Source: Phoronis australis (taxonomy: Eukaryota > Animalia > Phoronida). Taken from it: a stretch of 64,000 nucleotides of DNA. The notes below the pieces were generated by a model. It was not told where the DNA came from. It did no database searches and saw nothing but the letters and a program-made list of their open reading frames with translations. Location of the stretch: NCBI GenBank assembly GCA_002633005.1, contig NMRA01000028.1, forward strand, positions 542,183 through 606,182, written 5' to 3'. Shown piece by piece: positions 7,797 to 35,800 of the stretch (positions are counted from its first letter, which is position 1; each line of letters opens with the position of its first letter). Position numbers and translations under genes: made by a program.

Positions 7797-7936
7797 TGTC
7801 GTTAATGCTTTTACTGCTGGCGGAGGTGGTAATGTCCTTGGTGAGCAAATCTTGCTCGGACTGAGTGCAGAGGCCGACGTAGAGTCACTGATTACTGCTT
7901 TAAAAGCAGACGATCTGAACGTAAACACGAGAGGAG
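7797..7936 (+). CDS. Paralogous prepropeptide exon or pseudo-exon (VVNAFTAGGGGNVLGEQILLGLSAEADVESLITALKADDLNVNTRG)
   Basis: Strong acceptor tttcttttcactgtag with the same phase-2 start as exon 3742-3626. Aligns VVxxFTA..NVxG...AE....E.....L..(E/D)D(M/L)N. Possible donors GTGAGC (7841) or GTTGTA/GTAAGC (7937/7940). No intact signal-peptide exon found. Confidence 0.55.
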
Positions 7937-9929
7937 GTTGTAAGCATATGCTTTTTTAAGACATAAAGTAATTGTAACTAGCGACTGGTCTCGTGCATGG
8001 TACCCCGATCATTCTGAAGGGAAACTGTTAGATTCGCCGCTCAAAGGCCTAGTCATTTCTGGCCAGTGATAATCAGTGCATCCAGTATTGTAAAAGGAAC
8101 CTTTGTTAAACGAACAAGTTTCTTATTGCTAACTAAGATCAAGTTGGCTTGAAACGACAGGTTGGCGCAGGACATGCTTTCTAACAATTAACTGTACAGC
8201 TGTTTCCAAACTTACAGTAGAAATAGTAGTTCACTACCCGAATAAAGCTCGAGTTCAGGTATTTTTGATAACTGTTGGCTCGATTCTATGTTAATCACTG
8301 CTTCATGGCAAGAAGATAGACTTTTTCGCATTACATGTAGCCTATACCAGACGTTTTATCACAATAAGGGTGACAGCACTGCAAAAAAATGGGATATACT
8401 TCTATGGACTACGAATACTGATGTGCCGTAGGATAGTTAGGTTGACCTTAGTATGAAAACCCCACTTGCCATCATGGAATTGGGCTTAAATGATCAGTGG
8501 AAGGTTTATCACGACTGAAGGAACTGAAAGTTCATAAGTGGTCTAAATCAAAAGTTTAAGTGTCTTCTTGGACGGCCCAACGCGAGGTTATAGCGGCTTT
8601 AATATAAAATTGTGAGAACGCGAGGAAAATCTCGTTTTTATTGGGGTATCAGGGGTTCCTGGAGTGTCATTCAGTTTCAATTATGGCATTACTACGATCT
8701 GGTAATGCCTTCCTGATTATACCTGCCAACATTACCTGTGTTATTAGTTACTCCCATTCAGCAAGTAAAGATGCACTTTTAATAGTTTACGCAGTAATAA
8801 ATTCAACTGTATTCGGCATACTTTAAAGTTATGTTGTATTTCAAGTAAAAAGCGTGCTTGTATAGATATCTGGGACAAATACCTCAGTAAATGTCACTAT
8901 CATGATTCACACATCGGAAAAGGTTTTTTTAATCCGGTTCAGTAAACAAGGTATTCGCCGCCGTGATTTGAAAAGAAAAATTGCATTTTAACCGACACCT
9001 TAGTTGTCAGTGATTTAAAAAACCTTTATTTTTTCTAAAGGCTAGCTGACTGTATAAAAAAATGAAAGGAAATGTTCGACACAACAAATGAAAGCCCTTC
9101 AAGTGTCAGTCAGTGAGTGAACTTAAGCATCACAAAAACTCCTGAACGGTATCCGAGAATAATTCAATCTTGCATAGACCCTCTGAAACAATTTTCTTGC
9201 TCATATAGTTTAAAATGTTTTGGTATGGCATAACACTTCTATGGCGGACTTGTTAAAGTTACTAATGGAAACCTGAGACAACTTAGGAAAATGACTCATG
9301 AACTCAGTTTACTTTTGACAAAATCTGGATAGAAACGGCCTTCGGTCATTGGCCTTCAGTTACTGCATTTGCCGAGTTGTTTCACACTGAACGAATTCCC
9401 GGAACATCTTAAATTTAGTTTCGCGGACGCCGACAACTTGAAATCACATCCCTGCGGCAAACATTCGGAATCTCTTCAAGTACCGGTATTTCAGAATGTA
9501 AACATAGCCAGAACTGGTCAGTTTGCCGCAACTTCGAGTGTTACTCAACTATTGCTGACTGTGGCTGACTACGTCCGGCGGCGTCACCCAGCGTGTTCTA
9601 TCACATTAACCGAGTCGGTTTATTCTCTAAGTCTAACCTTTCAAGTTTCTTTATTTCAGCATAAAGACAATAGATGTCTATGATTTTGCAGTCAACGTAG
9701 TACAGTACAGGCCTATAGGCTACCGGCGTTCTATAGTCGGGGGCTTATAAGGTGCTGGGGATCTCAGCATGTTGCACATATTTGGATGGGATTAAATAAA
9801 GCGAGGTGCATTCTCAAAGTTCGAACGTTAATTCAAGATTTAAGTTATGAAAGTAACATGGCCATTTTTAATTATGTCAACTGACTCGACAACGCAAGCG
9901 GCAAACAAGAGCGTGAAATATTTTGGTAC

Positions 9930-10059: not shown

Positions 10060-10240
10060 ATGGCAGATCACCGTAAGACAGCCGCAGCCAACAAGTTCTC
10101 ACTTGGACTTGTTTTACCTGGTTTAAAAAAGGCGGTTAAGAACTTGTCGACTGGAGGACACACCGAACTGGGCAACGTTTTGTTTGACCAGAAGGTTGTC
10201 ATACACAATCACAACAAAACTGTTTTGTCAAAACTTCAAG
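10060..10240 (+). CDS. BAR gene exon 1 (MADHRK...VLSKLQ)
   Basis: ATG at 10060, donor GTTTGT at 10241, phase 1. Confidence 0.8.
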
Positions 10241-13200
10241 GTTTGTAACTACTGACTGTCTAAGACTAAAACAAAGTGCTGTGAAACATTTCTGCAGTCT
10301 GTCTTTAAACTCTGTTGTAGCAGTGGCCTGAGATTTTCTGGGTTAACTAGATTGAGCTCTAATTTAAGTTATCAGTTAGGTTCGAGTTATGAAGACTTTC
10401 ATGGACCCTGATTTAGAGAATCAGGCAATCAATGAATAATGCCTGCTATTTAGTGGATGAAACTGGTTCTCTAAGTCAGGTTATTGTATTAAGACATGAA
10501 ATTGTCTCTTCTTAGCAATAGAGACTGTGGCCATCCCAGTAGGCCCTATGCCGGAAGTTTTTTGATGAACTATGATGTCTCAAACGATTAAACCATCAAA
10601 GTCACGTTGCTATTACTTTTTTGCGCATAGAAAGACACCTTGGCTTAGGAGGCCATCAATGTCTTTAATTCATTCCAACTCCAACAAATACTCTTGTAAT
10701 CAAACTTTCTTTTTTGTGAGCATTCCTTCATTCAGTTTCCTAAATCGGAAACTGGAATTTTTACACTGCTTGCACCAGGGTTACATGCCCTGGCACGAGC
10801 AGTGTGGTATGCGTCTCGGAATTTTGTGGGTTTCAACTTAGTTGGGCGCCAATGTTGATAAAGGCTGTAATATTATTGTGGTTTGTACTGGAACTACACT
10901 TACCTTATATGACACAATTCGTTAGAATGGTTTATTATGTAACTCTTGCCAAACTTGTGCATTGCAAAAACATGTTGTGCAGTAGTTAGTCAGTGTGCAA
11001 TAATGTAGTGTTCAAGTAAAGACGTCTTCTTCACTGACCTCTCTCCACACGACATTACATGGTGTCAGGAGTTGGCGATTTTTTGTTCAGTTGTTGCTTA
11101 GTGTTCTAAACAATGGCTGCTATAGCTAGACTTGAGCCTGCTGGAACCATTTGTACAGTTGGAGACTGACAAAACAGGAGAAAGTTGGAGTCAGTGGCGG
11201 CAGAGATTTGACATTAACCTGATCGCGAGCGGACTCGAGGATGCATCAGATAAACAGAAAGTTAACATTTTACTTCACCTCCTTGGAGCAGATGGTGTCA
11301 AATTGTTTAATGCATTTGATTTGTCACCATAAGACAGGTACTGACACGTTTTGACGAACAGTGGCCATAAGAAATACTGCAATATTCGCCAACAAGCATA
11401 TTTGGAACACAACCAGAAGGCCGGTGAGTCGCTATGGCTTTTGTAGCCGATCTACAGCATCGCGCAAAGGGATGTGACTATGGTGACAGAGTACACATTT
11501 GTGACAGAATTGTCAATGGTGTCCGCGACAGTCACATCAAGTTGAAACTTCTAGACTTTGAAGTAAATGACTACTCTTCGGAGAATGTCATTAAAATTTG
11601 TCGCGCAAGTGAACTGTCTTAACAGCACCTAAAAAACCTATCAGCGAAGGACAATGTTTGTCACACAAGGCACAAGATGTTGTGTAAAAAATGCATGAGA
11701 ATGCGTTAAGAGGACAACTGTCCTGCTAGAGGCAAAACATGTCACGTTTGTGGCAGTTTTGGCCATTTTGCGAACTCGAAAATTTGCAAAGTACAACAGA
11801 GATCGCTGCAACAGCAAAACCATTATCAACAACAGAGAAGAGAACAAGCTAGAGGGCGTCAAAGAGGAAATCGTGGTTGGAATCACTGAGGACACACAAA
11901 TGTTCACAGAACAGAAAAGGACGAAATGGCAAATATGATGGAACAATGCAGTATTGAGATGTGTTCGGGATAAATCCAAATTTTGCATATGTACAAATTC
12001 TGATGATTGGAATGTCACAGTCGGTAAGTCACGCTTATTCTTAGCAATTGATACGTTTGCAGATTGCAATGTACTGCCACTAGCTACAGTGAGGAAGTTA
12101 GGTAGGTAACACCTGTTGAAACAAAGCAATGTTATGATTATTCATGACAAATCATAGAAAGCGTATGGTAAAACTGTATTGCCAGCTGTTTATAATAATA
12201 AGACACATGCTAGAGTTTCTTGTACTGGACAACAGGAAACAAGTAGATTTGTTATGTCGTGATGACAGTATGAAATTAAATGTTGTCCAGAGAGTGTTTG
12301 AAGTTGACTCTCAGAAAAAAAAGCAAATCACAACTGTTTTGTAAGAAAATACAGTGATGTGTTTGAAGAAACAATTGAGTGTATTCCAGCGGAATGCAAT
12401 ATTCAGGTAGATTTGTCTATACCGCCAGTAGTAGTTCACACTCCCAGCTTAGTTCCCGCTGGTATCAGAGAGCAGATAAAAGTGGAATTAGACCATTTAG
12501 AAAGGTGTGGCATTATCGCGAAGGTCACTGAGCCAACACCTTGGATGTCTCCATTAGTATGTGTTCGGAAATGCAAGAATAGAGTCAGGTTGTGTATTGA
12601 TCCCTCTAGCTTAAATAAGGCTATTTTGTGTAAACACCATCCGATGAGTTCAATTGATGATATTGTAACCAGATAACATGGGAGTAAAATTTTCAGTGTA
12701 CTTGATGAAAACATGGTTTACTACCAAATCAGGCTTTGTGACCAAAGTTCTTACTATACAGCATTTAATACCCCATTTGGGCGATACAGACATCTTAGGT
12801 TGCCAGTGGGCTTGAAAAGTTCCCCAGAAATTTATCAAAGGGCTATGCAAAGTATGTTTGGTCACATTTCGGGAGTGAAAGTTGTGATGGAAGATATTCT
12901 AATTCATGGCAAAACACCTCAAGAGCATGAACGGCTCACAGCTGTACTTGAGATAGCCAGAAAACAAGGGCTAAAATTGAATCTAAATTTAAGACTAAGA
13001 TTAGTCAATCCCAAATTTGTTAGTGGGGGCGGCGCACCATAGGGGGCTGGGGGGGGGCTATAGCCCCCACTTTTTTTAGTGCTATGCCGAACATGGTCTC
13101 TAGGCGGTGAACCACGGGTTGCTGAGGGGGCTTTAGCCCTCCCCCACTTTTTTCAGTGCTGCTCCACCCATGTACGGGGTCATGTTTTGACTGCTGATGG

Positions 13201-16200
13201 TGTAAAACCATCCCAAGAGAGAATTCAGGCTATTGTTAATATGCCAGAACCAATCAATGAACAAGAACTGCAGTCAGCGTTGGGAATGATCGCATATGTG
13301 TCCAAATTTATCCCAAACTTTAGTCAGTTGAGTGCTCCATTACGACAAATGAAAAATTCAGGCTCTTGGAAGTCAGGCGAGGTAGAATCGAAAGCTTTTT
13401 CAAGTATCAAGAAAGCTTTGTGTAACTCCCCTGTATTAATATACTTAGATATCAACAAACCAATTATACACTAAGTGTTGATGCTACCACCAAGGTTTGT
13501 AAGGTTGATATTCTAGCAAATTGTATGCATGATGAAATTGCTATGGAAACATGCGATGATGTGGTGTATTGCAAAAACATGTTGTTGTACAGTAGTTAGT
13601 CAGTCCGCAATAAAGTAGTGTTCAAGTAAAGACGTCTTCTTCTCTCCTCTCTCCACAAGACATTACGAACGCATTCAGATACTTTTCTTGGTCCTGTCGG
13701 GAATCAAACCACTTACTTCCTACAACAAATTCTAGCATCCAGATTGATTGGCTAAAGAGCAATTACCTAATGTACTGGAAGATTTAGAGTTTTCTCTTAA
13801 TATTGAGGGTATGGCACAACTGGAAGTCATGTTATAATAAACCACTCTTGGTCTGTATTTCATACTTTTACATTACTGTGAAGTGAGTTAAGAAGTAATT
13901 GGGACCTAGATTATTGCTCAAGGGAAAGTATTCAAGTACATGCACTGATATAGTCAGAGAAGTTAACATTTTTTGGTTTTGTGACATATTTCCGGTGTCG
14001 GTGCCAATCAAAATAGTCTGCCTTGGATGTCGCTCAATCAGTAAAGCCAAAAGCATTAGCTTACATGGCAGATAAATCTAATATACCACAGCAGGTAAAG
14101 CGCACAATGACATTGTCGGATATCCCATATTTTGCATGCTGTTGAGAAATTTGAAGAAATGCATTTCAACAGGGGAACAAGTCCTGCGTTAATATTACAT
14201 TTTAGAGTGACTCTCCGTAGGGGAATAAATGGGTTCTGCTGTGAGTTGATTACTGTTTGTATTTATGAAAAGGGCTTGAACTTCACTGGTCGTACTTTCT
14301 AGATAAGAAAGAAATTGAAAATTGTGAACAATTTTTGGTGGTCGTAAATATAGGGTGGTCACTATCTGAAGTGATTACTATTCAAGTAACTGAATTTGTT
14401 TAGCCTACTCGAAATGAACAACAAAAAACAGAGGGTTTCAGTTACTTCTAAGGCACTCGTCCTTGTACACTATTGGCAAATTGGTCATGCCCACTTGCAA
14501 ATGATGTCATGATGTATGATGAATCTGTATACTGCACAGATTGTGTAGCGTGCAGAACAGTGAGCCAAACTCTCAGTCCACAGGAGGTGCTGATGTACAC
14601 ATAGTGCATTGGGTATGGTTTTCACTTCAGTCCTGACTAATAAACCAGTCCACTAGATTTCAGATTGGTAAGCTCATTTGTAAACTGAAGCCAAAAATGA
14701 ATGATTCGAATGAAACAACTCGTGAAAGTTGAGAGTGGGTTGAAGTTTTAGTTTTATATTGTGTAACAGAAGTGCTGTACTGACAATAAGAGCCTGTATT
14801 AGATTGCAACCAAAGTAATTGGACTAATTAACAATGAGTTAATCGACTTCACTCTGAGCATCTGGCTCCTGTTAGTTTCCTGGAATTCGGCTATTCAAAA
14901 TTTGTTCAAACTTTTTTTTCATGCTGTGTATTGAGTGCTTGGGTAAAATTTATTACTCTACCGTTATGATACTGAATTGTTAAAAGAGTTACAGTTTTCT
15001 AAATTATCACTTCATTTGTTTTAAATGCCTTCTGAGTTTTTTGTAAAAATCTTAAAAGTCCTTATTTTTTGTTACTCCTCTTGCTATAGTTGAACCTCCT
15101 AGTAACAATTCCTAACCCCGATTTAGGGAACATTACATAAAGCGTGCCATAATATCTGAAGGTATTCATATAACTCTAATCAATAGGTTTTTTACTGAGA
15201 TAGTCAGCCAAATTTAGACATTTTTCTAGGTTGCTATGCAAGATTAGTAATATCAGGAAGGTATATCTCTTCCTGGTAATAAATATTCAAGATGAAGGTA
15301 AGCCATTGTGCAGTTGTTGAATTAAGTGTACTTCAAGTAATGAACATGGATATGACTGTTTGGCTTGCATATTTCAGATGCTGATAACTTGTTGAAATGG
15401 TCTCAGAATGATGATAACATAGAATTGCGCTCATTATTTTTTAAATTTGCTGAACTGGAACAGTTGTCAGCTCAGGTACATCAACAATACACTGTGCAGG
15501 TGAGTCAATACCCTCACTGTAACCATATGTTCATATTTGTACTTATGATAATAGCAATAACATTAAAACAACAGTTCATTTCAACAAACATCGCAAGCAT
15601 GATGCCCAATAACTAGGATATAGCATTCTTCTTCAAGCAAGGAATTCCTTCAGTTTTGCTTTGTATAAAAAGTTATCAGCATGGCACTAATATTGTGATT
15701 GCCGATACCAACAGAAAATAAATAATAAATCAATTAGTTATTTTCTGTTAGTTGCGTTTCAATAATTCTCCATATTTACCTCTCATACCTTCATTTTGAC
15801 CGCTGCTATGATAATGCAATTTAAATTCTTTTTAAATCTTTTCATGAAGCAGGTTACCTTAATGCCAAGTTGCATTTGGCGACCTGCCAAAAATCTGGGT
15901 TCGCTAAATCTGAAAAACCCAGGTCATCCAGTATGGCAGTAGTTTATTATCTCCAAATCCTATATTCCTCTAATCAATATCTCAGTCAGAAACATCAGAT
16001 CAAGTTAGTCAGATCCATACCTAACCTTAATCTGAGTCATCAAGCTGTGGCATGCTGGTTGATGAACTCCAGATCTTCGACTTCACCGTGGGGTGCTTCT
16101 CTGTGTTTTGACTTGGACAAGTGTAATGTTTTCCCAAATCAACAGTTTTCAGTGTTGCCACATTAGATTCTCAATTCAGTGTCACTGCATTTGTGGTGAT

Positions 16201-19200
16201 ACGTTATTGAAGTTTCAAAGGTTCTTACTACTAACTAAGGAACATGATGAAACATTTGTAACAGTTTCTTTTCCAAAATTTCTAAATAATAGGACTTGTG
16301 TCAAGGGGGAGTATCATAGGCAGTTGACAAACCTTTAGTGTCATAAAATTGCTAAATAATAGGGCTTGTGTCATGGGGGAATATCGTAGGCACTTGACAA
16401 ACCTTTAGTGTCATTTTTAAAAGTTTAGCTGTATAATATGTGATGTTTTTGTTTTAGCTCGATTCATATCGCAAGACATACAAACAGGTTCTTAAGGTCG
16501 AACGTACTTTAGATGAACTCAGCAAGGTGTGTGAGTCGAACAGAGTTAAGGTTGACAAACTGTCCAAGGTTCACAGCCAGACAAAGAAACCATCTGAACA
16601 TCAGTTGCAAGAGATAGACAAGGTATTGTCTTGTTCACTAGTTGCAGCGTTCTCTCAAAACCTCTTTTTCAATTTCCAAAGGCTTCCAACACTGTTGAAA
16701 ATGCCCACAATTTTTCAAAACGTTGACTGGTGGTAGCTATGGTACAGAGTTTGAACATGGAACAGTGTTGATTTGGTGTTACATGTACCTTTTATGAAAA
16801 AATGTGAAAATGAAAATCTCAATTATCTGACATATTGTGTCCTAAATTGGTGATATTTACCATATTAGGTAAGCAGCATGATAACTTTATATGGAAACCA
16901 TTTTCATTTCTTAGCATCCATAATTTTTCGCAAACCTCGCATGCAGTTTTTCTCAAACCATGCATACAGTTTGTGAATTTCAAATCTCTTGTTTTTTGCA
17001 GTGAATTATGTAGTATGCAATCAGCTTAATTCACAAAAGTGAGTCAGTGAAATATTCAGTCATTGTTTGGGGGACCCCATATGCATACTAGTATCATCCT
17101 GAGTGATCAGAAAATTGAGCCTTTGGGCACTAATTCACTAAGTACTCGCTGAAACTCGTATTATCTGACCTTTCACTCGCTTTTAGCACCAAAGAACATG
17201 GTTCTTTGAGCATTGGCTTAATTTTCTAGATAAAGTCATCCATTCATTAATGGCTGGTCATGTATACACATTCACAACTAGTTTTTGAATTAAGATAATG
17301 AATTAAAAGATATTGTTGTAATCCTGGTTTATACTAAATGAAGTGCAGTGCAAGGAATGCTATTCCAAGCAACATTGGTAGAGCACAACATTTTTATAGC
17401 TGTTCAAACGGAGCCTTTTTTACTTGATCAACATTGCTTGGAATACCACTTTTTGAAGTGATATTCCTTTAGACATGATTGTGTTTTTGTTTACAGTCAT
17501 ATCTACACTTGTTGTGTGTTACGGTCAATAGGTTACGAAATGATAAGTAAAACAGTAAAACTGATGTAACATGGATCCAATCTGATTGAGAGCTTTCATC
17601 TCCGTAAGGTTAAATTGGGTTTATCTGAAGGGCTGTGGGCACGAATTAGAAGAATTATATATGAATGTAAAACTTATGCGGCAAGGAAATTGCAAACATT
17701 TTTAAGTTTGGTGAGCATGCCATCTATTGGCCATATAGGTCACGTGATGTGGCTAACAGATGGCGTGCCAACCAGACTTAAAAATCTTTTGGAATATTTA
17801 GTCTGTGTTTAGGAAGAGTCAGGCTTGTGGGAGTTACACTGCAGTTATTTGAAGTTTTGATTTATTACTTAAGAAATGATTGAAATTCATGGTTCAAATA
17901 AGATGTTTTAATTCCATGTATATTAATAAAAGTCTTGTTGTTTGGTAGGCCCTCTCAACATCTGAAGATTCAGTGGCTGCCTTGGCTGTGAAAACAGAAC
18001 AGGTGTCTATATTCAAGGTATTACCTACCATTGGTGTGACGTTCTTCCACAAATTAGAACAAAAATTATTTACAAAATTACCCTTTTTCATTTTTCAAAA
18101 GCTCACTACATGTGTTAAAAATGCTCAGAATTTCACCAGCTTTAAATTGGAATATACCACTCAGGTTGGATATATTAGACATTTGTGTACTATATGAGAA
18201 TAACCTTCATCACATGAACAAGATAGAGCTATGATAACTGAATGAGTGAGTACCCTTCACCATGTAACTTGTGGATATATCTGTACATGTAAATTTATAT
18301 GCATGTGTTTGTGCGTACAATGTATCCCTATATGTATTTTATGTACATCTACGCTATGAAGTTATCAGACATTGTTTTTCTTCAAAAGGTAAAGTGCTCT
18401 AACTAGGCTGATATTGCTTATATTGTTAGCATGCTAAAGTGCGCTGCGCTGTCCTAAACTTACTGGAGGCTGAACAAGCGCTGCACGAGAAAAGTCTGGA
18501 TATTATCAGCGCCAAGAAGCGACTACTCAGTACTCTTCTACCCAAAGATATTCCCAGGAAGGCAAACATCGACGCAAAAGGTGATGGTGACATTGCTGGT
18601 CATATGTATGCAGCATAAATCTTGTAGCTTCTGAAGCTTTGTTCTGTATTATTTGATGATGCAAACAAAATATGCAATTTGCTTGATGCATCTCCTATGT
18701 TCACCTTGTATGTATTCTGTGGACTGTGTTTCTCGACAGTCGACAATCTCAAGTTTTTCTCTGCTACGCAGTGACGCATCACTTGTGTCCCTTCTTGTTA
18801 ATGTCTAAAAATTCAGTGGGTTGGTGTTAATCCAACTACAACTGAACGCACACATTTAGAGGAGAATTGGTTGAAAATGCAGATGCTGGCGTTTAGCCAA
18901 ACGTGACTATTAAGCCAATGGATGTAGTATCTGGGGGTTCTAGTGAAATGTGAGCCAAGTCTTTCCTCTTTCATTCCACATAAATATTATGTGAAAATTA
19001 TTTAATTAGACTTCAGCAAAGTACAAAAGTCTCTGTCATATAACTGCAGGGATCGGATATTTTTGTAGAAATTATTTCTGAACTGTGTTGTGCTTACAAT
19101 TTCATGAAAAAAATTATGTTAAAATCTCACCAATTGCGAGTAAAAACTTTTGCCAGAATTATGTTTTTTTTTTTTAAGGGCTTCTAACATTGTTGTGAGT

Positions 19201-22200
19201 TCCCAGTTTTTCGAAATATTTCCTCGTGGTACAAAACCTTGACATGGTTAGGTATCTTAAAAGTTGCTGCTACGTATGTTTCATGAAAAAAATATGATTT
19301 CACGTGTCTGTCATATTTTGTCCTAAATTTGTGAGATTTTATCGTATTTAGTATGAGCACAAGACAAAATTTGTGACATTTTAGTCACACCCAAGTACTG
19401 AGTTGAGCCAAAACTGAAATTTCTAAGAAAGACTGCACCTAAAACAAATATATGGTAAAAATTCTCCAGTTAGGGCATGGAAAATTTACTGATTTTGCTC
19501 AAAGTTTGTATCATGAGAAATACGTAGGCAATATTATCCGTCCCGTAAATTCAAGAACTGTGATAAGAAAAGTTTAGTGTTGGCAGCTATTTTTTGACAA
19601 TTTTATTTCAGACTTTGCTGATACAGAATACAGTGTCTAATATTTGAGAAATATGATGAATACCATAATTGACACTGTCCCAATCCTCAGAATCAAGAAA
19701 ACAAGTTCAAATTTGGCTTGAATTTCAGTGTCCCAAATTTTAGAGACTGTCCCAAATTGGAGAATTTTTACCTTAAGTAACGGTTTCTGTGCGTAGTACA
19801 TTGGTCAATATCCACACCACTGACTCACTGTGGTTATAGAATGTATGTCAGACTAGCTTTTTTATGGTGCAATGCTTGTCATTTGCTTATCAAGTATTTG
19901 TGTGAAAATTTTCTTATCTGCAAAGCCCGGCTTTACCTCTTCTGTAACTTATGTGCAAGATGTTGAATCTCATAACTAGCATATTCTGAACTCTCAGCAA
20001 ATGGCTTACTAACAGAATGATTGCGCTATTTGAATTCATTTAAATTATTTGTTGTTGCTCTGTGTTTCACCTCACACGTGCACGTTTGCCGTTGATAGCA
20101 TGTTGTGTTGTTTGTTGTCTGCAGAGCTAGTTGAGTGCGGTAAGCTAGTATCCGATGTGGCTGCATCGTTGAACCTGTCTAGACCGATCATAACTGACCC
20201 TGCCACGCCCTCACCCACACATGAGGTTAGTAAAACCACTTCCTTGTATATCTAGTGTGCAGTTTACAAATATTCATAACACCAGTAGTTCCCCTGTTGC
20301 TGCATTAAAACAGTACCTTAGCGAGCCGATTTCTTTTTATTTAATACACCATGTTTCAATTTTTGCAGTATGATGTCTGTTTAACTGTGACATTCATAGT
20401 AACATTCAAAGTTACAATTAGAGTGTCCATATATGTAATATTAAGTCTCTCATGTGATGTTTCACATTTTCACATTCCAGGCTCAGCTATTCAGCTATCC
20501 ATTGGGGGTAACCGAACAATTATCTTCTCAGACAGGACCATAAACCTTTTGCTAAGGTGTCCAACTGGGACAGTTGTATGACTAAGAGCAGGGTTTACAA
20601 AAAGCTGCTTTTACTTTCCTTGCGTATGAAGGACACCCTCAACATTCAAAGCCTCTATGCGGATTGATTACCCCTCCAAGCCCAAAATGAGATTGTGAAA
20701 TGTAACTTCTCTGTTGAGTATTTTATGCCTTTTATTTCATTTCAGAACTCAGGATTCTTGAAAGGCTTCCTTCGAAACAATTGGAAAAATCAAAACAAGA
20801 AAAAAGTTAAGAAGCATGATGAGGTGTTTAATAAGCAGGCTGCCCTCAAAATCTTGTCAGACTGGCCCCCTGTGAAGACTACAGGTAAGGCATTGTTTTC
20901 TGTTGAAAATGATGACTACTTTTCCACTGCCCTCTGTTGGTGATTAGTAACTACACCATTCGTCTCAGTGATTGCCAATTGTGTCAGCAGGTGGTCCAAA
21001 GCTTTTAACTGACAATTGCACTCCAGTCTACTTTGTATGTAGCTAAGTGACAATTAAAGTTCTGAGTTTTATCATTACTTTGAGATGGTAATTGAAATTA
21101 TTTTATTTGGACAAATTCTGAAGTTACATTTTATACTCAACAGTTTTCCATATTGTCTGCATACCTTCATATTGACAGTTGCTTTGGCGACACGGTTTCA
21201 ATTCCTTTTAAAAGTAACGCAGATATCATTGTGATTTCCATGACGGGGATCTTCTTGTTAGCAAGCCATCAGCATGTAATCGAACTCAAAAATCTTTAAT
21301 GCCTTCTTATGTCATCCAGATTTTGATGTTACATTTGCTTTTAAGTTACTGTAAAATATAAATCCCTGCATGAATGCAAACCTGAATCAAAGCATTGCAG
21401 TTCCCACCAGCATGCTATTCTAAAAAAGGTGGATTTTCAAATGCTAAAATGTTCACAAGTTGTTTATGAAAACTTTGAACAGCATGTTCACACTGAGCAT
21501 ACGGACATACAGTTTACAGTTGCATCGATGTTATTAAATCACATTTATTAATTGTTTTGCATTAACGACTTTTGTATGACCCCAAAATATGACATGTTTC
21601 CTAAAATATAATTGATAACTCTTTAGTCGCTTCTGAGCATCTGGAATTTTTTCAAAATCTCTCCACAGTGATATGGGTAAAAAACTGTTAGCTGAGTGAC
21701 CAAGTGAGTGATCAACATACGATTGAAAGCCCTAGCATTGTCTCCTTTGGCTTCACCTCGGTCATTGTCACATTTTTGGGGTCTGACAACCAACATATTG
21801 ACCTTGGTGAAAGTCAGGAGATGTATATAGTCATGAAATTGTTCAAGTAAATGCCTCTATTGATTGAACACATCGTTAAGAAAATGCTGATTTATCTAGT
21901 GTGCTTGTAGTGTGTCTGTAATACCATGTTTCTTGCTTTTGTTCCTTGGATAAGTTTACTGAGCGTTGAGACAAAATCCCAGTAAAGACTGGTCTTCAGA
22001 TGAGTTTTTATGTAGTGCCCATTGTTTGTCATAAATGTTTGTCTGTATGACCATCAGAGAGGCTTATATATCAGAATGGTGTATTGAAAAATACAAGTAA
22101 TTTATATTCTTTGATGTTTTCCGTTTTCTTTTGCTGTGTAGTTGAATGTCATATCGCAGTTATAGTGATATTGTGTGATATCATACCTCAGGTGCTGAGA

Positions 22201-22986
22201 GTGATGATAATGACGAACATGATTATACCGAGCCCTTCAGCCACCTCAAGCCTACACCCCTACCTCGGTCAGCTGTGTGTAAGTCTGTGAGTGCAGTGGC
22301 TGGTCGTTCAGCCCCCAAGCCACTTCCAAGACCTGCCAGGTCACTGGGTGACCTCACTGAGACTAAGCATTATGATGATGCCAGAGTTAAGAGATCAACA
22401 CAGTCAGTGTGTATCAGTGAAGAGGTTTATCAAGCTAATGACTACTTGGATGTCTTGCCTCAAGAGGTCAACGATGATGAAGGTAAGGACATACTTGTGT
22501 GGATTCAATGATTTGTGAATTAATGTTCACTGATATTTAACAAGTCTCAACATATGCATTCCGTAACTTTTGAGATTTTTTGAAAATTTCTGAATAACAG
22601 TCAGAATGGTGTATCCACAGAAGCCAGGTCATCCGTTCTGGAGTAAGCTAGTTTTAATTCATGCCCATCGGAATTTTCCCCGGACTTTATCCAGTTGAAT
22701 CCAATTTTTGGAAATTTTACTGTATTTGGCCAAAATGCACAGAAATAGTAACTGTGAGATCAGCTCAACATTTAGTTTGTTAAAGATGTGCTTCCATGAC
22801 ATGTTGTTCAACAAAACAGATTCAACAAGGTAATGATGTATGTGTGGAGTAGCTGCATGACTAATGGTTGTTTCAGACTCCAGCAGCGAAGATGATGAAG
22901 AGTACATGCATCTCTTTGACATTATTCCACCCAAGAATCACAACGACACGTATGCAACACCTACAGGAGTTACAAATAATGTTTAA
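10060..22986 (+). CDS. Pil1/Lsp1-like (eisosome-type) BAR-domain protein with a Tyr/Pro-motif tail, 442 aa, 9 exons
   Basis: Exons 10060-10240, 15378-15499, 16458-16622, 17949-18017, 18430-18580, 20125-20225, 20746-20884, 22192-22482, 22877-22986. All introns are GT-AG, phases 1,0,0,0,1,0,1,1 join into 1329 nt with a single stop. Motifs QKVVI...DADNLLKW, LDSYRKTYKQVLKVERTL, KVRCAV...HEKSLDI...KRLLSTL and KLVSDVAASLN parallel recalled Pil1 EKNVL...DAAKQLSIW, YDQYRLTLKSIRDIEGSV, KLRAAF...HSEKIALI...KALLELL and KQIIIDAESALN. Confidence 0.85.
10401..10480. mobile_element. Truncated copy of the palindromic MITE at 30362-30477, opposite orientation
   Basis: atggaccctgatttagagaa...ctggttctctaagtcagg. 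Confidence 0.65.
11113..13490 (+). pseudogene. Disrupted gag-pol (Gag, Zn knuckle, protease, RT, start of RNase H)
   Basis: Fragments in ORFs 11132, 11434, 12359, 12713 and 13079 with many stops and frameshifts; catalytic xxDD decayed to MEDI. Confidence 0.88.
13024..13172. mobile_element. GC-rich MITE (CATGGGCG...CGCCCATG family) inserted into the Gypsy RT
   Basis: Interrupts RT between PKFV and GHVLT; homologous to 33548-33696 and 29022-29445. Confidence 0.75.
15378..15499 (+). CDS. BAR gene exon 2 (DADNLLKWSQ...QQYTVQ)
   Basis: Acceptor atttcag, donor GTGAGT. Confidence 0.85.
16292..16414. repeat. ~70-bp direct tandem duplication
   Basis: ctaaataatagg..ttgtgtca.gggga.tatc.taggca.ttgacaaacctttagtgtcat present twice. 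Confidence 0.7.
16458..16622 (+). CDS. BAR gene exon 3 (LDSYRKTYK...QEIDK)
   Basis: Acceptor tttttgttttag, donor GTATTG. Confidence 0.85.
17949..18017 (+). CDS. BAR gene exon 4 (ALSTSEDSVAALAVKTEQVSIFK)
   Basis: Acceptor ttgtttggtag, donor GTATTA, phase 0/0; restores the BAR helix register. Confidence 0.75.
18430..18580 (+). CDS. BAR gene exon 5 (HAKVRCAVL...NIDAK)
   Basis: Acceptor tattgttag, donor GTGATG. Confidence 0.8.
19453..19773. mobile_element. ~320-bp MITE
   Basis: TIR GGTAAAAATTCTCCA / TGGAGAATTTTTACC, flanked by TA. Confidence 0.55.
20125..20225 (+). CDS. BAR gene exon 6 (ELVECGKLVSDVAASLN...PTHE)
   Basis: Acceptor tgtctgcag, donor GTTAGT. Confidence 0.8.
20746..20884 (+). CDS. 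BAR gene exon 7 (NSGFLKGFLRNNWK...PPVKTT)
   Basis: Acceptor tttcatttcag, donor GTAAGG. Confidence 0.8.
22192..22482 (+). CDS. BAR gene exon 8 (Tyr/PxPxPR motif tail)
   Basis: Acceptor acctcag, donor GTAAGG, 291 nt open. Confidence 0.8.
22877..22986 (+). CDS. BAR gene terminal exon (DSSSEDDEEYMHLF...TYATPTGVTNNV*)
   Basis: Acceptor tgtttcag, TAA at 22984-22986. Confidence 0.8.
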
Positions 22987-23607
22987 CAAAGCCTTGGTCA
23001 CAAATGGTGTTTCATATAAAATGGGAATTACTTGTTACTTGTTTCTGTTCTTTCTGAGCTTTGATTCAAACAGTATTGTCAGAAACATGTTGTTATTTTT
23101 GTGTTTTTTTTTATTTGTTTGACTATTTATTTATTGTTGACACTGTAATCTGATTAGGAGGAGGAAAGCAATTGTTTGAATTGAAAGTGGCATTTTCTTG
23201 CTTTAACAGGGTTAAATTGTGGTAAATTGTAAAGTAATATTGTCATGTAATGTGTACTTTTTGAGAAATTGCCATTTTTATTGTTAATTATTTTGTGTGG
23301 TGAGTGGAGTGTGAACTGTGGCTGTCCTTAATTTGCAAGATATTATGAACAGTTAGCAACTAATGTGCCACATGGTACCTGCAGCATGTATTTTTCTTTT
23401 GTATTTTGTCTGACCAGTAGTTTCCTATTTAAAGTCACTTCGATCATTTCATCCAGAATTTGTTTAGTATATAATATGCATGTATTTAAGCCCATGCACC
23501 TATATCCGAAATAATGCATTCTTTCAACAAATGCAACGTCTGTCATTTTGTTATGAGCCAGTCAACCTTCACCCATATATAATAATTATATTAAATTAAT
23601 TTTAAAA

Positions 23608-24340
23608 TTTTACCGAGTGATTTATAAGTGGTCCGTCAATTTTCTCTGAGCGTCCGGTGTCCGCAGCTGTATCTCCTAAATCCCTTACAGGATCTTGATG
23701 AGATTTGGCAGACGTGTTCCTATGAAGCTGATGACAACAAATTTCGAATCTCTCCGACTACAGATGTGCCCCCTAGTGGCAATTTTAGATTTTTACCCTT
23801 ACCTCTTTATCTTCGGAAGTCCTCAATGGATTTTCATAAAATTTGGCAGGTATGCATATATTAGTGAGATGACGCTATCCTCTCGTTTTTGGATGGATTC
23901 AATGTGTTTTGCACCTCTTAGTGGCCATTTTTACTGTTTTCGAGTCTGTTTTTTGGCGTCCGCCCTTCTATCAATCAAACTGTTCTGGAGTTGATTTTGA
24001 AAAATGGCATATATGTTCTTATTGTGAAGGGGGTGGCTGACAATGATTTTCCAATGACTTTGACTACTGTGGCGCATCCTAGTGGCAGTTTTTTTTTGCG
24101 CCCACAGCTGTATCTCCTAAACACTCTGCAGGATGTTTAATTAAATTTAGCAAATGTATTTATATGAAGATGACAACGGACGACGATGACTTTCAGACAT
24201 ATCTGACAAACGCTGTACCCCCTAGTGGCAATTTCATTTTTTTCCTTTTTCCTTAGTTTGTTTGAAGTTCCTTGGCAGATTTTTATGAAATTTAAAATAG
24301 CTTTCTATTAAAAAATGATGTCATGTTCCCGTTTTCACAA
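23608..24340 (+). mobile_element. Helentron/DINE-1-like non-autonomous element with ~150-bp internal tandem units
   Basis: T-rich start and gtccgtc-like motif; repeated units of gctgtatctcctaaa...gat.tt.atgaaatttggca and cc.ctagtggc; related fragment at ~40420-40690. Confidence 0.55.
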
Positions 24341-27300
24341 CTGTTTCATGAAAGTAAATAAATGTCACTTCAGTAGAAGTGCAAAGTCTCTGAAAACTTG
24401 CACAAAAATGCTGTTACTGAGATAATTTCATAATATTATTTCAAAACTGCGATGGGCTCATAATTATGTGGCTGAATCTTTTTTCAGCATTTGTGAAGTG
24501 GCTAGGTAGTCTTTTAAGACAGAAAAGTCTTAAGTCTTTTTCATGAAACAGATCCTGCTGTTTTCGCCTGGCTGGCCAACACTTTGGTTTATTATGCTCC
24601 TGTATGGTATGTTACATCATTCTTTGCTCATGATTAGTTACTTTTATGGAAAATTAATAATTAGAATCTCTGTGTAGAAATGGAAATCAATGTAATGTGA
24701 AGGTTTTTAAGAAGAAATACTCAGTTGAAAAAACACTTATTGCTTTTCATGTGACCTCGGAATATTTTGTGGTCTCATATAGACAGCACCCCCTCCCTCC
24801 CTTCTTTTTGTGATAATCTATATTTGTTCATGGATTATCTCGAAAATAGCTCTACTTAAAGACAGACAGTGATAAAATTTGACACAGAGTTATGCGGGGG
24901 GGGGGGCTTCGCCAACACTAACCGTTTTTGGGACGCAGTTGACCATTAACCAATAATTCTTCTCTTCTCACAAAAATAATTGCCAAAATTACTTTCTGTT
25001 TCTAAAGGCTGGTTACCTCACTACATGCACTTTCATGTAAGAAGGTCATGCTTGCAACAAATATGGAAACTTTGCCAAATGTTGTTTTAGGACGTGTAGA
25101 CAATTCAATGCAAGCTGATAATAGACAACAATTATCTCTTTCCTTATTGTTGTGGAGAAATATGACGAAATAAACTTTTGCCTTTTCGTTATACTGTGTT
25201 ACAACAAGGTGTTTCTGAAGTTACCATGGATGGCTCTAGTGTTGAAGACAGTTTAGCTTGAACTGGATTGGTGTCTGACTTTTTTGGTTTAGTATATTTG
25301 GTACCAATCAAAAAACCAACTTGCCTGCCTTACTGCAAATTCTTTCATTCTACCTGCTCAGTATAAACGTGCGTTTGCCCTTGATTTGGCATTTCCTGTC
25401 GTGAGACAGTTCTCACTCCTTCCTATGTGTATTTCTATAAAAAATATGCAATTTTTAAATGATTTCTGTCAAATCGCACTAGTCAGTCGAAACACATTAT
25501 AGAGCCTTTCACATGGCATTTCGGTTTTCCATTTTTTAAAAAATCCCGGATTTGAAGTTCATATGTGCCAAGATTTAAAATTGTTTGATTTCGCAAAAAT
25601 TGATTAGCGACTACAAGCGTGAGAAATAAAATCAACCGTGGTGAACTGGATAAAAACACGTTTGAAGTTTTCCAGTCATCACAAACAACCAAAACGAATA
25701 GCTCAGGATGGCGCGTTGGTTTTGCATCAGGGATACTCATGATTCAAGTGTATTGATCTGTGGTTAAAAAGATTGTCAGAGATGGGATCAAAATGACAAC
25801 TTTACAATTTTCGAGTCAATTTATTTTTTTCACAAAATGTAAAAGAAGAATCAAAGGGCAAGACGAATTTAAAATTTTAAAAATTCAATATTCAGTATTA
25901 ATACTCCTCACTCTGGTGGGTTTTTTTCGCATTCACTTCACGCAGGCCTATTGTACCATATGGTCCAATACATGCTCCTGTATTCAAAACTGCGCCCACA
26001 CATTCCGAATTTTCGGCGCATGTGCTTATGCTTATTTGTCGCCTGTTACGTGCTTGCAAGTGACGATTCGGACATGTACGCATTAGATCCTTTTTAAAGT
26101 TGCATTTCGCTTTGTTGGGCTGGCTAAAAATTGTAAATTGAATTAGGCCTTTTACTCGCTTATTGGTCTCGTGATATTTTATATCGTTACACAATTCCTT
26201 TACTAACATGAACATAAAAACCATCCGCGACTCAACTCTTCAGTTGGTAAACCCTAAAATTGCGAATTCGAAAATAGCGCTTTTGCATTGTCCGTGACTT
26301 GAGTTGGTTACAGAAATAGCATCCTATCACGGTAAGGATAGTTAGGAGAACGGTCTCATTCCATTTTATTTTAGCGGTGCTAAACGACGACATGTAGCTT
26401 CAAATTATGTCCAGTTATTTAACTCGTGGATTCAAATGGTGGTGGAGAATCTTGCGAATGGTAGGCTGTCACGCTAGGTTGCGTCAACAACGGTATGATC
26501 GGCTAACGTCAAAACTGATGAAGAGTGAATCCCAAACAACAAGTCTGATGACTTGGGAGTCTGGTCGACTAGACCTCGGACCACTAATGGTTTGAGCCTA
26601 GACGTGCATACATCTGTGCTTACATGTACAGTTCACACACCTGTGTATGTACTCCTGCAGTCTGCACACTATTTAGTATGCCACCTAACTAGTGTCTGTG
26701 TTTGTTTTTAGCTGTTTTTCATTTGGAAACTAACCGTTGACATTCTCACTGATTTTACTGTAAAAACAAACAGAACTACCGTGAATAAACCAGCGTTCCC
26801 TCGTCGAGACGAACTCTTGATGTAGGCACTATCGCTATAAAATTGGTATCGACTTGTTCCTTCGGCTACTTACATGAGAAAAAATTGGAGTTGCAAAGAA
26901 CTGACCGTTCGTAATTCCTTGATGTTATGCTTTGCAAATAAAACGACACGCCGTGACAACTGAGACCTTGCAAATCGTCGTTTCGAGCATGACGAGCTGT
27001 CAGTTCTTTCGAAGGCTTGAAATCACCTCCAGCTTGACTAAAGAGTAATTTCATAACGTAGGGGAAGAGACCAGGGCTAGATCGGCCCCAATTTTGAAAA
27101 ACAGAAATTTCCAACCGTCTCCCAACTTCTTGAACAATATTTGAAAACAGGAATTTTCAGGAAGTCTTTATGGGATATGAAATGGTGATGTCACAGAAGT
27201 GCAATATGAATTCTAAGTGATCAGGTCCGAAAGGCCAAAAACAGGCCAAGTTTAATAAACCCTCGGGGTAACTTCGGTTCACTTAAATGCAATAACTGTC

Positions 27301-32800: not shown

Positions 32801-35800
32801 TACTGTTTAATCCATTAAACATGCACAAAAGCGCAATTCACAGTGGTGCTCCCTTTTTTTTATTAGTTCGCCCGGCTTTTTTGTTACCAAAAGGTCCTCA
32901 AAGTCAGGAATTCGAGCCCCCCCATATTGAAGGCTGGGTGCGCGCATGATTTGTATGCGTATTTCAACACTTCAAATTTTACTCATTTTCTGTAATTGCT
33001 GCGCAATGACTTTAGTTGTTGTCTGTTCCATTTTGGACAATCAGTATGAAATGTTGAAGTACACATCCAAAACACACAAATCAACTTTTGATTTTAGAAC
33101 ACTCACTGTTATAAAATTTGTCTCAACTTGATCCGTACTCAGGCGAGAAGTGAATTCCTGGTTTGCAAAGAGCTGACACTTCATTATTGCCTGAGTGCAT
33201 GCCTGCCAAATAACATGTCACGTTGTTATAAACCAACTTGTAGAACCTGATCTGGAGCATTAGCAAGATAAGCACTCTTTTGAAGCTCTGAAGTCTCCTC
33301 TAGTTTAAGTATGAACGAATAATTAATGACCAATTTCTTCATGGTAAATGGTTTTAATAAAAAATTGTGACGGAAGAAACATTTATTGCTGCTTTAGTAA
33401 GTTACAGTTTGACTTTGTCATTGGTTAGGAGCAGAAGCAACATGGGCAACATCACATATATGACTGGTTGTTGTTGGACACACAATGTGGGCAACACTAT
33501 GTACATGGCTGGTTGTTGTTGGACACACAACGTGGGCAACACTATGTCATGGGCGGCTCACCATAGGGGGCAGGGGGGGCTATAGCCCCAGTTTTTCAGT
33601 GCTACGCTGCCCATGGTCTATAGGCAGTGCACCACAGGGGGGCTGGCTGGCTTTAGCCCCCCACCCCCCAGTTTTTTCAGTGCTGCGTTGCCCATGTATG
33701 TACATGGCTGTATGTCAGTCACTCAGTAGTTACATCAGCAATGAGACGAGAGTGTGTGTTAATGTAGCTACAGTCAGGGTCATACACATTAAACATTTGC
33801 TCTAATCTCTTAATCATATTAGCAATACCATCTTCTCTCGATCTGAAGCCATGTGTCTCCTATCTGAAGCCATGCAGCCGCACCATTACTGGGGAACAGG
33901 GCGCCTACCAAAAGGAAACCTTTTCAACTCACCTTGTCGAAGTTACAAGGAATGTTTTTAGATAGCTTTGCTTTGATGCTCTTTCTGTAAACTTGTATTA
34001 TTCCACTTGTTAAATTTTGCTAGTTCAACAAATGCAGACATAAAGCAAATTTGTAAATTTTGTGTTTTTGTCATTTCAGACATCTGAAGCAATGCCTTAT
34101 AAAGATAATGCAAGAGTGTCTTCAAGACTAAGAGTACAAAGCAAAGATAAAAAGGGAAATGGAACTAAGAAAAAGAATATATTGGGGATAGAGAGAGACT
34201 CTGCTTCTATCACAGTCACTGAGAAACCATCATGTGAGGCTGCTGTGGGCAAGATGCTTGTAGATAAAGTATTGTCCAGTAGTAGCATGGAGTCCAGTAG
34301 AAGAAGGGTACTAATTAAGCCAAATAGATTCAATGTTACGTTGGGTGAGAGTGAAGACAAGGGAAAGAAAAGGGAAAAGGTCTCTGTTGGTGTCCTTAGA
34401 CATAGGAAATGTAAGGATGGATTAGAACTACCTATGGAGGAATCAAAGCATGGGAACTGTGGTGTTAAACAGCCTACCAATAACAAAGCACGGAAGAATG
34501 CAGGTATTAGTGAGATGAAGGCTGAGAAAAGCATGATGACTGGCCTTGGAAAACGAGGGGGGGAAGACACCGTGAATGGTTCTACAGGTAAACGAGCAAA
34601 ATTAGACAGGACCTCTTTTGGCAAGGATGGACAAAGAAAAGGCAATCATGTTGGCAAGACAGGAAAAGAGAACGTAAAAAGTCACAGGTCCTCAGTTTGT
34701 AAAAACAGCAGAGTTCAGGAACCACGTGATGCCATCAAGGCAGAGACGCTGGCTATGAAGAGAACAACTAGGCAACAACTGAAATCAAGACAAACCATTA
34801 ACAGTTCCACGGCAGTGTACATCAGTGAGCCGAGAAATAAGTCTGCAACTGCAAAACAATTTTTTTCGTGCAATGAAACAAAGTGCACTGCAATATCAGA
34901 AAAGGGACGTGGCACAAGAAATCAGTCTGCCAAATCGGGCCTGCCAGATACTCACAGATCTACTAGGTGGTCTACAGTTTCTGTTGCAAGTGACAAGACC
35001 ACATCTAGAACAAGGCTGGCTGGTAGGCACTACCAAAGCACTTCTGCATTCAGCACTATTAAACCAGTCACGAGTCAGTCACAGATAGCGCCTGTGGTGG
35101 CAAGCAGTGACAACGTCCCTGCCTCTGCCCAGTCTAGCTCCAGGTTAAATGTGAGGTGGTTACCAGCCAGTGATCGTCAGCTGCGCAGTCGTAAGCCAGT
35201 CACCATAAAGCGGTCGGCCTACCCATCTACCACAGATGCCATTCGTAAGAAGTACAGGCGGCAATCCTTAGGTAGTACTTGCACTAAGCCCAACCTGATT
35301 ACCAAATCGGCCAGTGGGATTTCAACAACTGATTCAGTAAATACCTTGCAGACAAATTCATGTGTTGCCAAAATGGATACTTGCCTTGATAAATCTGCCA
35401 GTGTTTGCACAGTGGAGGCTGTTTATGTTGATAAGAGGGCTATGTACAAAAAGGATCCTATTCTTGCCTGCCTCTTATCAGACACTAATGGTGTACCCAA
35501 CGATTCTGATCCTCACAACGGCTTAGGTGGAGAATTAGTGTTGGCAGATTCAAATGCTGATTGTTTTGTGAAGGGTCGAAGGGGGCAGACTGGTGACAGA
35601 AGCTCACAAATTAACACGCCAATTGTCATGGCTTTGGAGGGTCAGTCTGAACATGATTCTGAAGCAACCAACAACAGCAGTAGCAGCAGCAAACACGATG
35701 AGTTATGTATCGGCTGTGAACTACAGCCAGCTACTGTAGAGCAGTGCTGCCACAATTCAGAGGGCAAGGAGCTGCTTACGAGTACAGAACATAATACACC

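Follow-up and report, generated by a model that had tools for sequence, protein, structure and literature searches.

We describe here a nine-exon gene on the + strand, at positions 10060-22986 of a 64,000-nucleotide stretch of Phoronis australis DNA (assembly GCA_002633005.1, contig NMRA01000028.1, positions 542,183 to 606,182 of the forward strand; the whole stretch is called the window below). Its 442-residue product combines an N-terminal helical domain weakly resembling that of the fungal Pil1/Lsp1 proteins with a tail that carries two PxPxPR motifs and six tyrosines. Our tentative reading, to which we give somewhat less than an even chance, is that this is a divergent Pil1-type BAR protein with a likely disordered tail that recruits CIN85/CD2AP and, once phosphorylated, SH2 adaptors.

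The 442-residue frame has no internal stops, and all eight introns are bounded by GT..AG. The introns are long and contain interspersed repeats and an LTR element, which suggests an animal gene. RNA evidence was taken from three raw runs (X2, X3 and X4) and one set of contigs (X1), mapped onto the gene region. Reads from X2, X3 and X4, respectively, cross the joints between exons 3 and 4 (10, 2 and 5 reads), 4 and 5 (4, 6 and 10), 5 and 6 (2, 6 and 6), 6 and 7 (6, 5 and 6), 7 and 8 (3, 5 and 3), and 8 and 9 (2, 0 and 25); X1 contigs cross every one of these joints but that between exons 4 and 5, with one contig each at the last three. All joint-crossing reads are first-mate-minus, as a stranded library would give for RNA from the + strand. 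Among the joints listed for exons 4-9, none skips an exon. The joints between exons 1 and 2 and between exons 2 and 3 are not among the 15 of 93 entries listed for the upstream part, though both exons 1 and 2 carry + strand RNA depth. The chain is made up of overlapping joints, with no single read across the whole gene. Exons 3-9 form one splice chain and are expressed. The first-pass annotation of this DNA, which spanned only the last three exons of the gene (exons 7-9), had placed the helical domain and the tail in one gene product, and the RNA joints running from exon 3 to exon 9 bear this out. As these joints link exon 3 to exon 9, exons 7-9 are not a separate transcript. Upstream of exon 1, an exon-like block at ~7797-7939 (+), outside the region of RNA mapping, is bounded by AG and GT and has a Gly-rich frame that stays open; it may be an exon of another gene or a 5' extension of the 442-residue gene.

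The two PxPxPR motifs (PTPLPR and PKPLPR) lie 21 residues apart in the tail. Chance was assessed with 40,000 shuffles of residues 310-442, either global or within blocks of 10, 15 or 25 residues; all motif tests are post hoc, having been chosen after the motifs had been seen. Two PxPxPR motifs arose in none of the 40,000 global shuffles and in 24, 16 and 4 of 40,000 with blocks of 10, 15 and 25, while the six-frame translation of the window (127,996 residues) contains four, including the tail pair. The pair is non-random, and PxPxPR is the sole class of tail motif far beyond chance. PPxY, P[TS]AP and LYP motifs do not occur in the protein. The core ligand of the CIN85 SH3 domains has been given as PXXXPR (PMC2833206) and as PX(P/A)XXR (PMC2702278; here and below, papers are cited for those portions of their text that were available to us), and both tail copies fit both cores. 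The earlier assignment of the motifs to the CIN85/CD2AP SH3 ligand type is thus in line with the published cores, and the motifs themselves are present where they had been placed, at a frequency above chance.

The six tyrosines fall within 133 residues, which is more than expected from two controls low in tyrosine, namely fungal tails (P=0.005) and a low-complexity open reading frame in the same window (P=0.01), or at a tyrosine background of 2% (P=0.05). The residue at +3 is Pro, Val or Leu in four of the six, and four Yxx[PVLIM] sites were reached in 1,418 of 40,000 shuffles; there are no YxN, YxxM or YxxQ sites in the tail. Nck SH2 prefers acidic residues at +1 and +2, and the YLDV site at Tyr394 presumably resembles the sites bound by PLC-gamma SH2 domains. 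For Crk SH2, the consensus is YxxP (PMC5043372).

For comparison, we assembled 16 full-length fungal Pil1/Lsp1 tails with a total of 1,092 residues. These are acidic and contain 13 tyrosines, none of them in a YxxP or Yxx[PVLIM] context, and PxxxPR is absent from all 16 proteins; the description of the Pil1 tail as simply acidic therefore holds. Fungi are not known to have canonical tyrosine-kinase/SH2 signalling. A conserved Arg-rich patch is seen straight after the domain in nine fungal proteins (L011, L019, L022, L034, L038, L042, L046, L057 and L070); the other seven tails, which are yeast-type, are without it. In the Phoronis protein, the corresponding region encoded by exon 7 had been described as an amphipathic/polybasic segment belonging to an animal-style tail. 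The segment is present and polybasic, with eight Lys/Arg and no Asp/Glu, and it lies at the start of a stretch that a single-sequence model predicts to be helical, but its hydrophobic moment is only moderate (0.43-0.55 over 11-mers, compared to 0.72 for the best 11-mer in the protein). Since 9/16 fungal tails are also basic right after the domain, a basic segment at this place is not animal-specific, and this part of the earlier description was overstated.

To place the N-terminal domain, a fungal set was drawn from 113 metagenome loci, which were retrieved by a sequence pattern based on primers published for PIL1/lsp-1 (PMC9964885). Open frames of at least 200 residues were present in 18 of these loci (17 unique), short or interrupted loci being left out. 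All four set members tested contain PF13805, one is identical to yeast Pil1, and a profile of the set gave significant E-values in the PDB for Pil1/Lsp1 only. The spliced Phoronis protein aligns with 17/17 fungal proteins in one register, at 3.9-16.7 bits, and 14 of the alignments extend to residue 206 or beyond; residues ~36-215 pair with Pil1 ~57-228, colinear over the three BAR helices though at low absolute bits, and the identity to yeast Pil1 is 22-26%. Residues 1-229 score a mean of 10.5 bits, a value reached by 0/200 global, 0/200 heptad-keeping and 1/200 block-10 shuffles. Low-entropy hidden Markov models (HMMs) gave 16-19 bits, compared to control maxima of 15-16.5 bits; overall, local fungal profiles ranged from 0.8 to 18.9 bits, varying with build and span.

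The lipid-binding residues of Pil1 are known from cryo-electron microscopy, with R126/K130/R133 contacting phosphatidylinositol 4,5-bisphosphate (PI(4,5)P2) and R43/K66/R70 contacting phosphatidylserine; the same work places an N-terminal lattice contact in residues 1-8 and sterol-binding aromatics at F33/Y40/F42/F50 (PMC11324527). In 4/4 alignments, R126, K130 and K66 correspond to R106, K110 and K45 of the Phoronis protein, and in 3/4 R43 corresponds to a Lys (K23) and F33 to a Phe, the sole sterol-binding aromatic kept. A single-sequence model of exon 3 shows a helix break where the Pil1 tip aligns; fold searches with this model returned generic coiled coils only and are uninformative. Going by these alignments, the helical domain is likely to be kin to Pil1, although this kinship is not established.

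On the tentative reading given above, the Pil1-type BAR domain would bind the plasma membrane as a predicted dimer, with R106, K110 and K45 together with the basic helix of exon 7 predicted to contact PI(4,5)P2, and dimers might further assemble into a lattice. CIN85/CD2AP would be bound constitutively, and avidly through the four PxPxPR motifs of each dimer, while phosphorylation by Src/Abl-type kinases at Tyr321, 394, 416 and 432 could act as a switch by which further SH2 proteins, of the Crk type and others, are brought in.

A number of results weigh against this reading, and they are best considered along with the alternatives that they bear on. Two YxxP sites occurred in 3,638 of 40,000 shuffles, which is chance level. 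The earlier proposal that the tyrosine motifs couple the protein to phosphotyrosine signalling thus stands only in part: all are present, their acidic context is enriched and YxxP is the Crk consensus, but only four of six fit at +3 and the YxxP count is no more than chance gives. It may be that a Pil1-like BAR protein has a genuine CIN85/CD2AP-binding tail in which the tyrosines are mostly incidental to an acidic sequence, so that there is no SH2 switch. This would fit the standing of PxPxPR as the one motif class far beyond chance, the loss of the tyrosine excess at a background of 3% (P=0.21), and the two amino-acid-changing differences between RNA and window that sit at +2 of Tyr370 and Tyr389. 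It does not account for the enrichment of acidic residues in the three positions before the tyrosines (136 of 40,000 global and 628-1,363 of 40,000 block shuffles), or for the four of six tyrosines that combine an acidic upstream context with a hydrophobic residue or Pro at +3, a pattern with no site in the 803-residue low-complexity control frame. We regard incidental tyrosines as unlikely.

In exons 8-9, RNA and window differ at four amino-acid-changing and three silent positions, and this ratio, with two of the changes at Tyr +2, indicates weak constraint. The differences D372G (22378), A391G (22435) and V442I (22981), and S244L (20167) in exon 6, are found in all covering raw-run reads; the alleles of the window may thus be private ones, or the window may derive from another population than the RNA. 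No orthologue was found with single-exon queries by word searches, phmmer (1.84 billion proteins), contig scans or Atlas, and no relative of exon 8 in the searches run. The whole tail could be a fast-drifting, lineage-specific disordered spacer, its motifs being chance products that no partner binds; the four changing to three silent differences, the failure to find exon 8 relatives in those searches and the choice of motifs after the fact all point in this direction. On the other side, two PxPxPR motifs lie 21 residues apart when the window background is ~2 in 128,000 residues, and all four changes spare the tyrosines, their +3 residues and the PxPxPR motifs; given the small number of changes, the power of this count is low. 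A chance spacer is, in our view, quite improbable.

The remaining points concern the domain. None of seven single-exon peptides matched PF13805 at its cut-off of 27 bits, as far as pieces of 35-96 residues can tell; no other family matched any single exon at its own cut-off, and single-exon fold and structure searches reached no Pil1/Lsp1 structure. Against the default HMM of the fungal set, the whole protein scored 0.8 bits and its residues 1-229 scored 7.4 bits, with 2/592 controls as high, and hhalign gave a probability of 1.7%, with one shuffle nearly equal (21.93 vs 21.94). Fifteen of the fungal proteins, when aligned with yeast Pil1, are 62-75% identical to it, and as the 17 are close kin their agreement is not independent evidence. 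Among the lipid-contacting residues, R133 is replaced by Leu (with Lys next to it) and R70 by His in 4/4 alignments, and Y40, F42 and F50 fall on non-aromatic residues or gaps; with Pil1 residues 1-8, the N-terminus has only Met and a His-Arg pair in common. The domain might therefore belong to another BAR class or be an unrelated helical bundle, which would make the protein an ordinary animal BAR or coiled-coil adaptor of the PSTPIP2/RICH1 type. Such an assignment would agree with the lack of any exon reaching PF13805 or a Pil1/Lsp1 structure, and with whole-domain scores that are borderline and come from scoring the spliced protein against Pil1/Lsp1 profiles alone among BAR classes, folding having been done on single exons. 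It is harder to reconcile with one colinear register over ~180 residues that has Pil1 lipid-binding residues in place, and with the absence of a match to any other family at cut-off. In addition, a yeast Pil1 search that left out the PF13805 clusters returned, as the nearest look-alike, one unnamed cluster of 76 members with a score of 0.79, in which Arthropoda is the commonest phylum (phylum known for four members); we treat it as a lead only. We hold a domain unrelated to Pil1 to be decidedly unlikely. The Pil1-type BAR premise of the first-pass annotation keeps the colinear register and the equivalents of K66, R126 and K130, but it is left with borderline scores and without an exon that reaches PF13805.

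In the literature, animals are described as having no direct Pil1 or LSP-1 orthologues (PMC10010689, from 2023), and an earlier survey found significant Pil1-family hits mostly confined to fungi (PMC3128537). Our literature searches, judged mostly from result lists, turned up no publication about a relative of Pil1 in animals or about a Pil1 BAR domain joined to a phosphotyrosine/SH3-ligand tail, and the available portions of PMC12470953, PMC13312728 and PMC5487894 contain nothing on animals. We speculate, as a rather unlikely extension of the favoured reading, that some animals keep an eisosome-type (Pil1) scaffold that is rewired here, such that the tails of a stretch-sensitive lattice cluster CIN85/CD2AP and SH2 adaptors and convert membrane tension or curvature into phosphotyrosine signalling. 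An expressed Pil1-like gene with CIN85/CD2AP and SH2-type motifs would be a sign that scaffolds of the eisosome type survived in some animals and became coupled to animal signalling. With such a gene one could directly test whether tyrosine-kinase adaptors can be gated by a stretch-sensitive lattice. A BAR domain with a phosphotyrosine/SH3-ligand tail is not new as a general design, and the link to Pil1 is still weak.

Besides the gene, the window contains a decayed retroelement in intron 1, which we take to be of the Ty3/Gypsy type from its domain order. Its two long terminal repeats (LTRs; 10957-11058 and 13564-13666), a direct repeat of 105 columns with 89.5% identity, flank a broken pol with an RVT_1 match at 12677-13039 (E 2.4e-14). 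Just downstream of the 3' untranslated region, a repeat at 23528-24500 is highly transcribed, mostly as + strand RNA, with a depth near 200 at 90% likeness; this depth probably stems from reads of other copies.

Coordinates of the gene, its predicted features and other elements in the window
Feature	Position	Strand	Residues and remarks
Exon 1	10060-10240	+	1-60; short N-terminus with predicted start; a part aligning with the amphipathic helix of Pil1, after which helix 1 begins
Exon 2	15378-15499	+	61-101; Trp/Asp-rich turn, aligns with Pil1 helix 1-2 junction; RNA depth
Exon 3	16458-16622	+	102-156; long helix with R106, K110; break at Lys-Pro, the aligned Pil1 tip
Exon 4	17949-18017	+	157-179; predicted helix 3; RNA joints, alignment
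Exon 5	18430-18580	+	180-229; predicted end of helix 3; RNA joints, alignment
Exon 6	20125-20225	+	230-263; linker, Pro-rich end; RNA joints
Exon 7	20746-20884	+	264-309; predicted helix 265-301, aromatic/basic start; RNA joints, single-sequence model
Amphipathic/polybasic segment	20752-20814	+	266-286
Exon 8	22192-22482	+	310-406; low-complexity tail with Tyr321, Tyr370, Tyr389, Tyr394 and both PxPxPR; RNA joints
Tyr321 (YxxP)	22224	+	exon 8
PxPxPR motif 1 (PTPLPR)	22251-22268	+	330-335; predicted CIN85/CD2AP SH3 ligand
PxPxPR motif 2 (PKPLPR)	22314-22331	+	351-356; predicted CIN85/CD2AP SH3 ligand
Tyr370	22371	+	exon 8; no consensus fit
Tyr389	22428	+	exon 8; no consensus fit
Tyr394 (YxxV)	22443	+	exon 8
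Exon 9, coding part	22877-22986	+	407-442 and stop; acidic stretch, Tyr416, Tyr432; RNA joint 8-9
Tyr416 (YxxL)	22903	+	exon 9
Tyr432 (YxxP)	22951	+	exon 9
Transcribed 3' untranslated region	22987-23500	+	RNA depth up to the edge of the mapped region
Decayed LTR retroelement	10957-13666		inside intron 1
Low-complexity open frame	34092-36500	+	803 residues; no Pfam matches; control for Tyr and PxPxPR

Compared to Saccharomyces cerevisiae Pil1/Lsp1 (PF13805; PDB 8qb7, 8qb8 and 3plt), the Phoronis protein shares the colinear helical domain, the equivalents of K66, R126 and K130, and the predicted helix break at the tip position. It differs in an N-terminus that is ~20 residues shorter and lacks the Pro run, in the changed R133, R70 and most of the sterol-binding aromatics, in a gene with eight long introns, and in a 179-residue tail with PxPxPR motifs and acidic tyrosine sites that are absent from the 16 fungal tails.

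Among animal proteins, PSTPIP2 likewise has a BAR-type domain, no SH3 domain and a C-terminal phosphotyrosine tail, which binds SHIP1; its domain is an F-BAR and not Pil1-like, and a PxPxPR pair is not described for it in the available portion of PMC8273435, so that the two are likened by architecture only. RICH1, SH3BP1 and ASAP1 combine an N-terminal BAR domain with a proline-rich region and have CIN85/CD2AP partners: RICH1 and ASAP1 are recruited by the SH3 domains of CIN85 (PMC2702278), and SH3BP1 and RICH1 associate with CD2AP (PMC4503795). These proteins, however, carry RhoGAP or PH-ArfGAP domains, whereas single-exon scans recognised no domain after the helical one in the Phoronis protein. 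The first-pass annotation had not recognised the architecture from any named protein. As BAR domains with phosphotyrosine or CIN85-ligand tails are already named, the novelty is limited to the Pil1-type scaffold, a pairing that was undescribed in our searches. SLP65/BLNK is similar in make-up, with a curved-membrane anchor and a disordered region that holds phosphotyrosine sites and proline-rich motifs for CIN85 (PMC7016142), although the anchor is a short lipid-binding N-terminus instead of a BAR domain and the protein ends in an SH2 domain. When the N-BAR of amphiphysin was fused to the SLP65 tail, the fusion was functional in B cells (PMC7016142), so that a BAR domain with a CIN85/phosphotyrosine tail is a viable design. 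We suggest that the Phoronis protein may work in the manner of PSTPIP2, with a BAR domain and a phosphotyrosine tail, or of SLP65, with an anchor, CIN85 motifs and phosphotyrosines, in either case on a Pil1-type scaffold.

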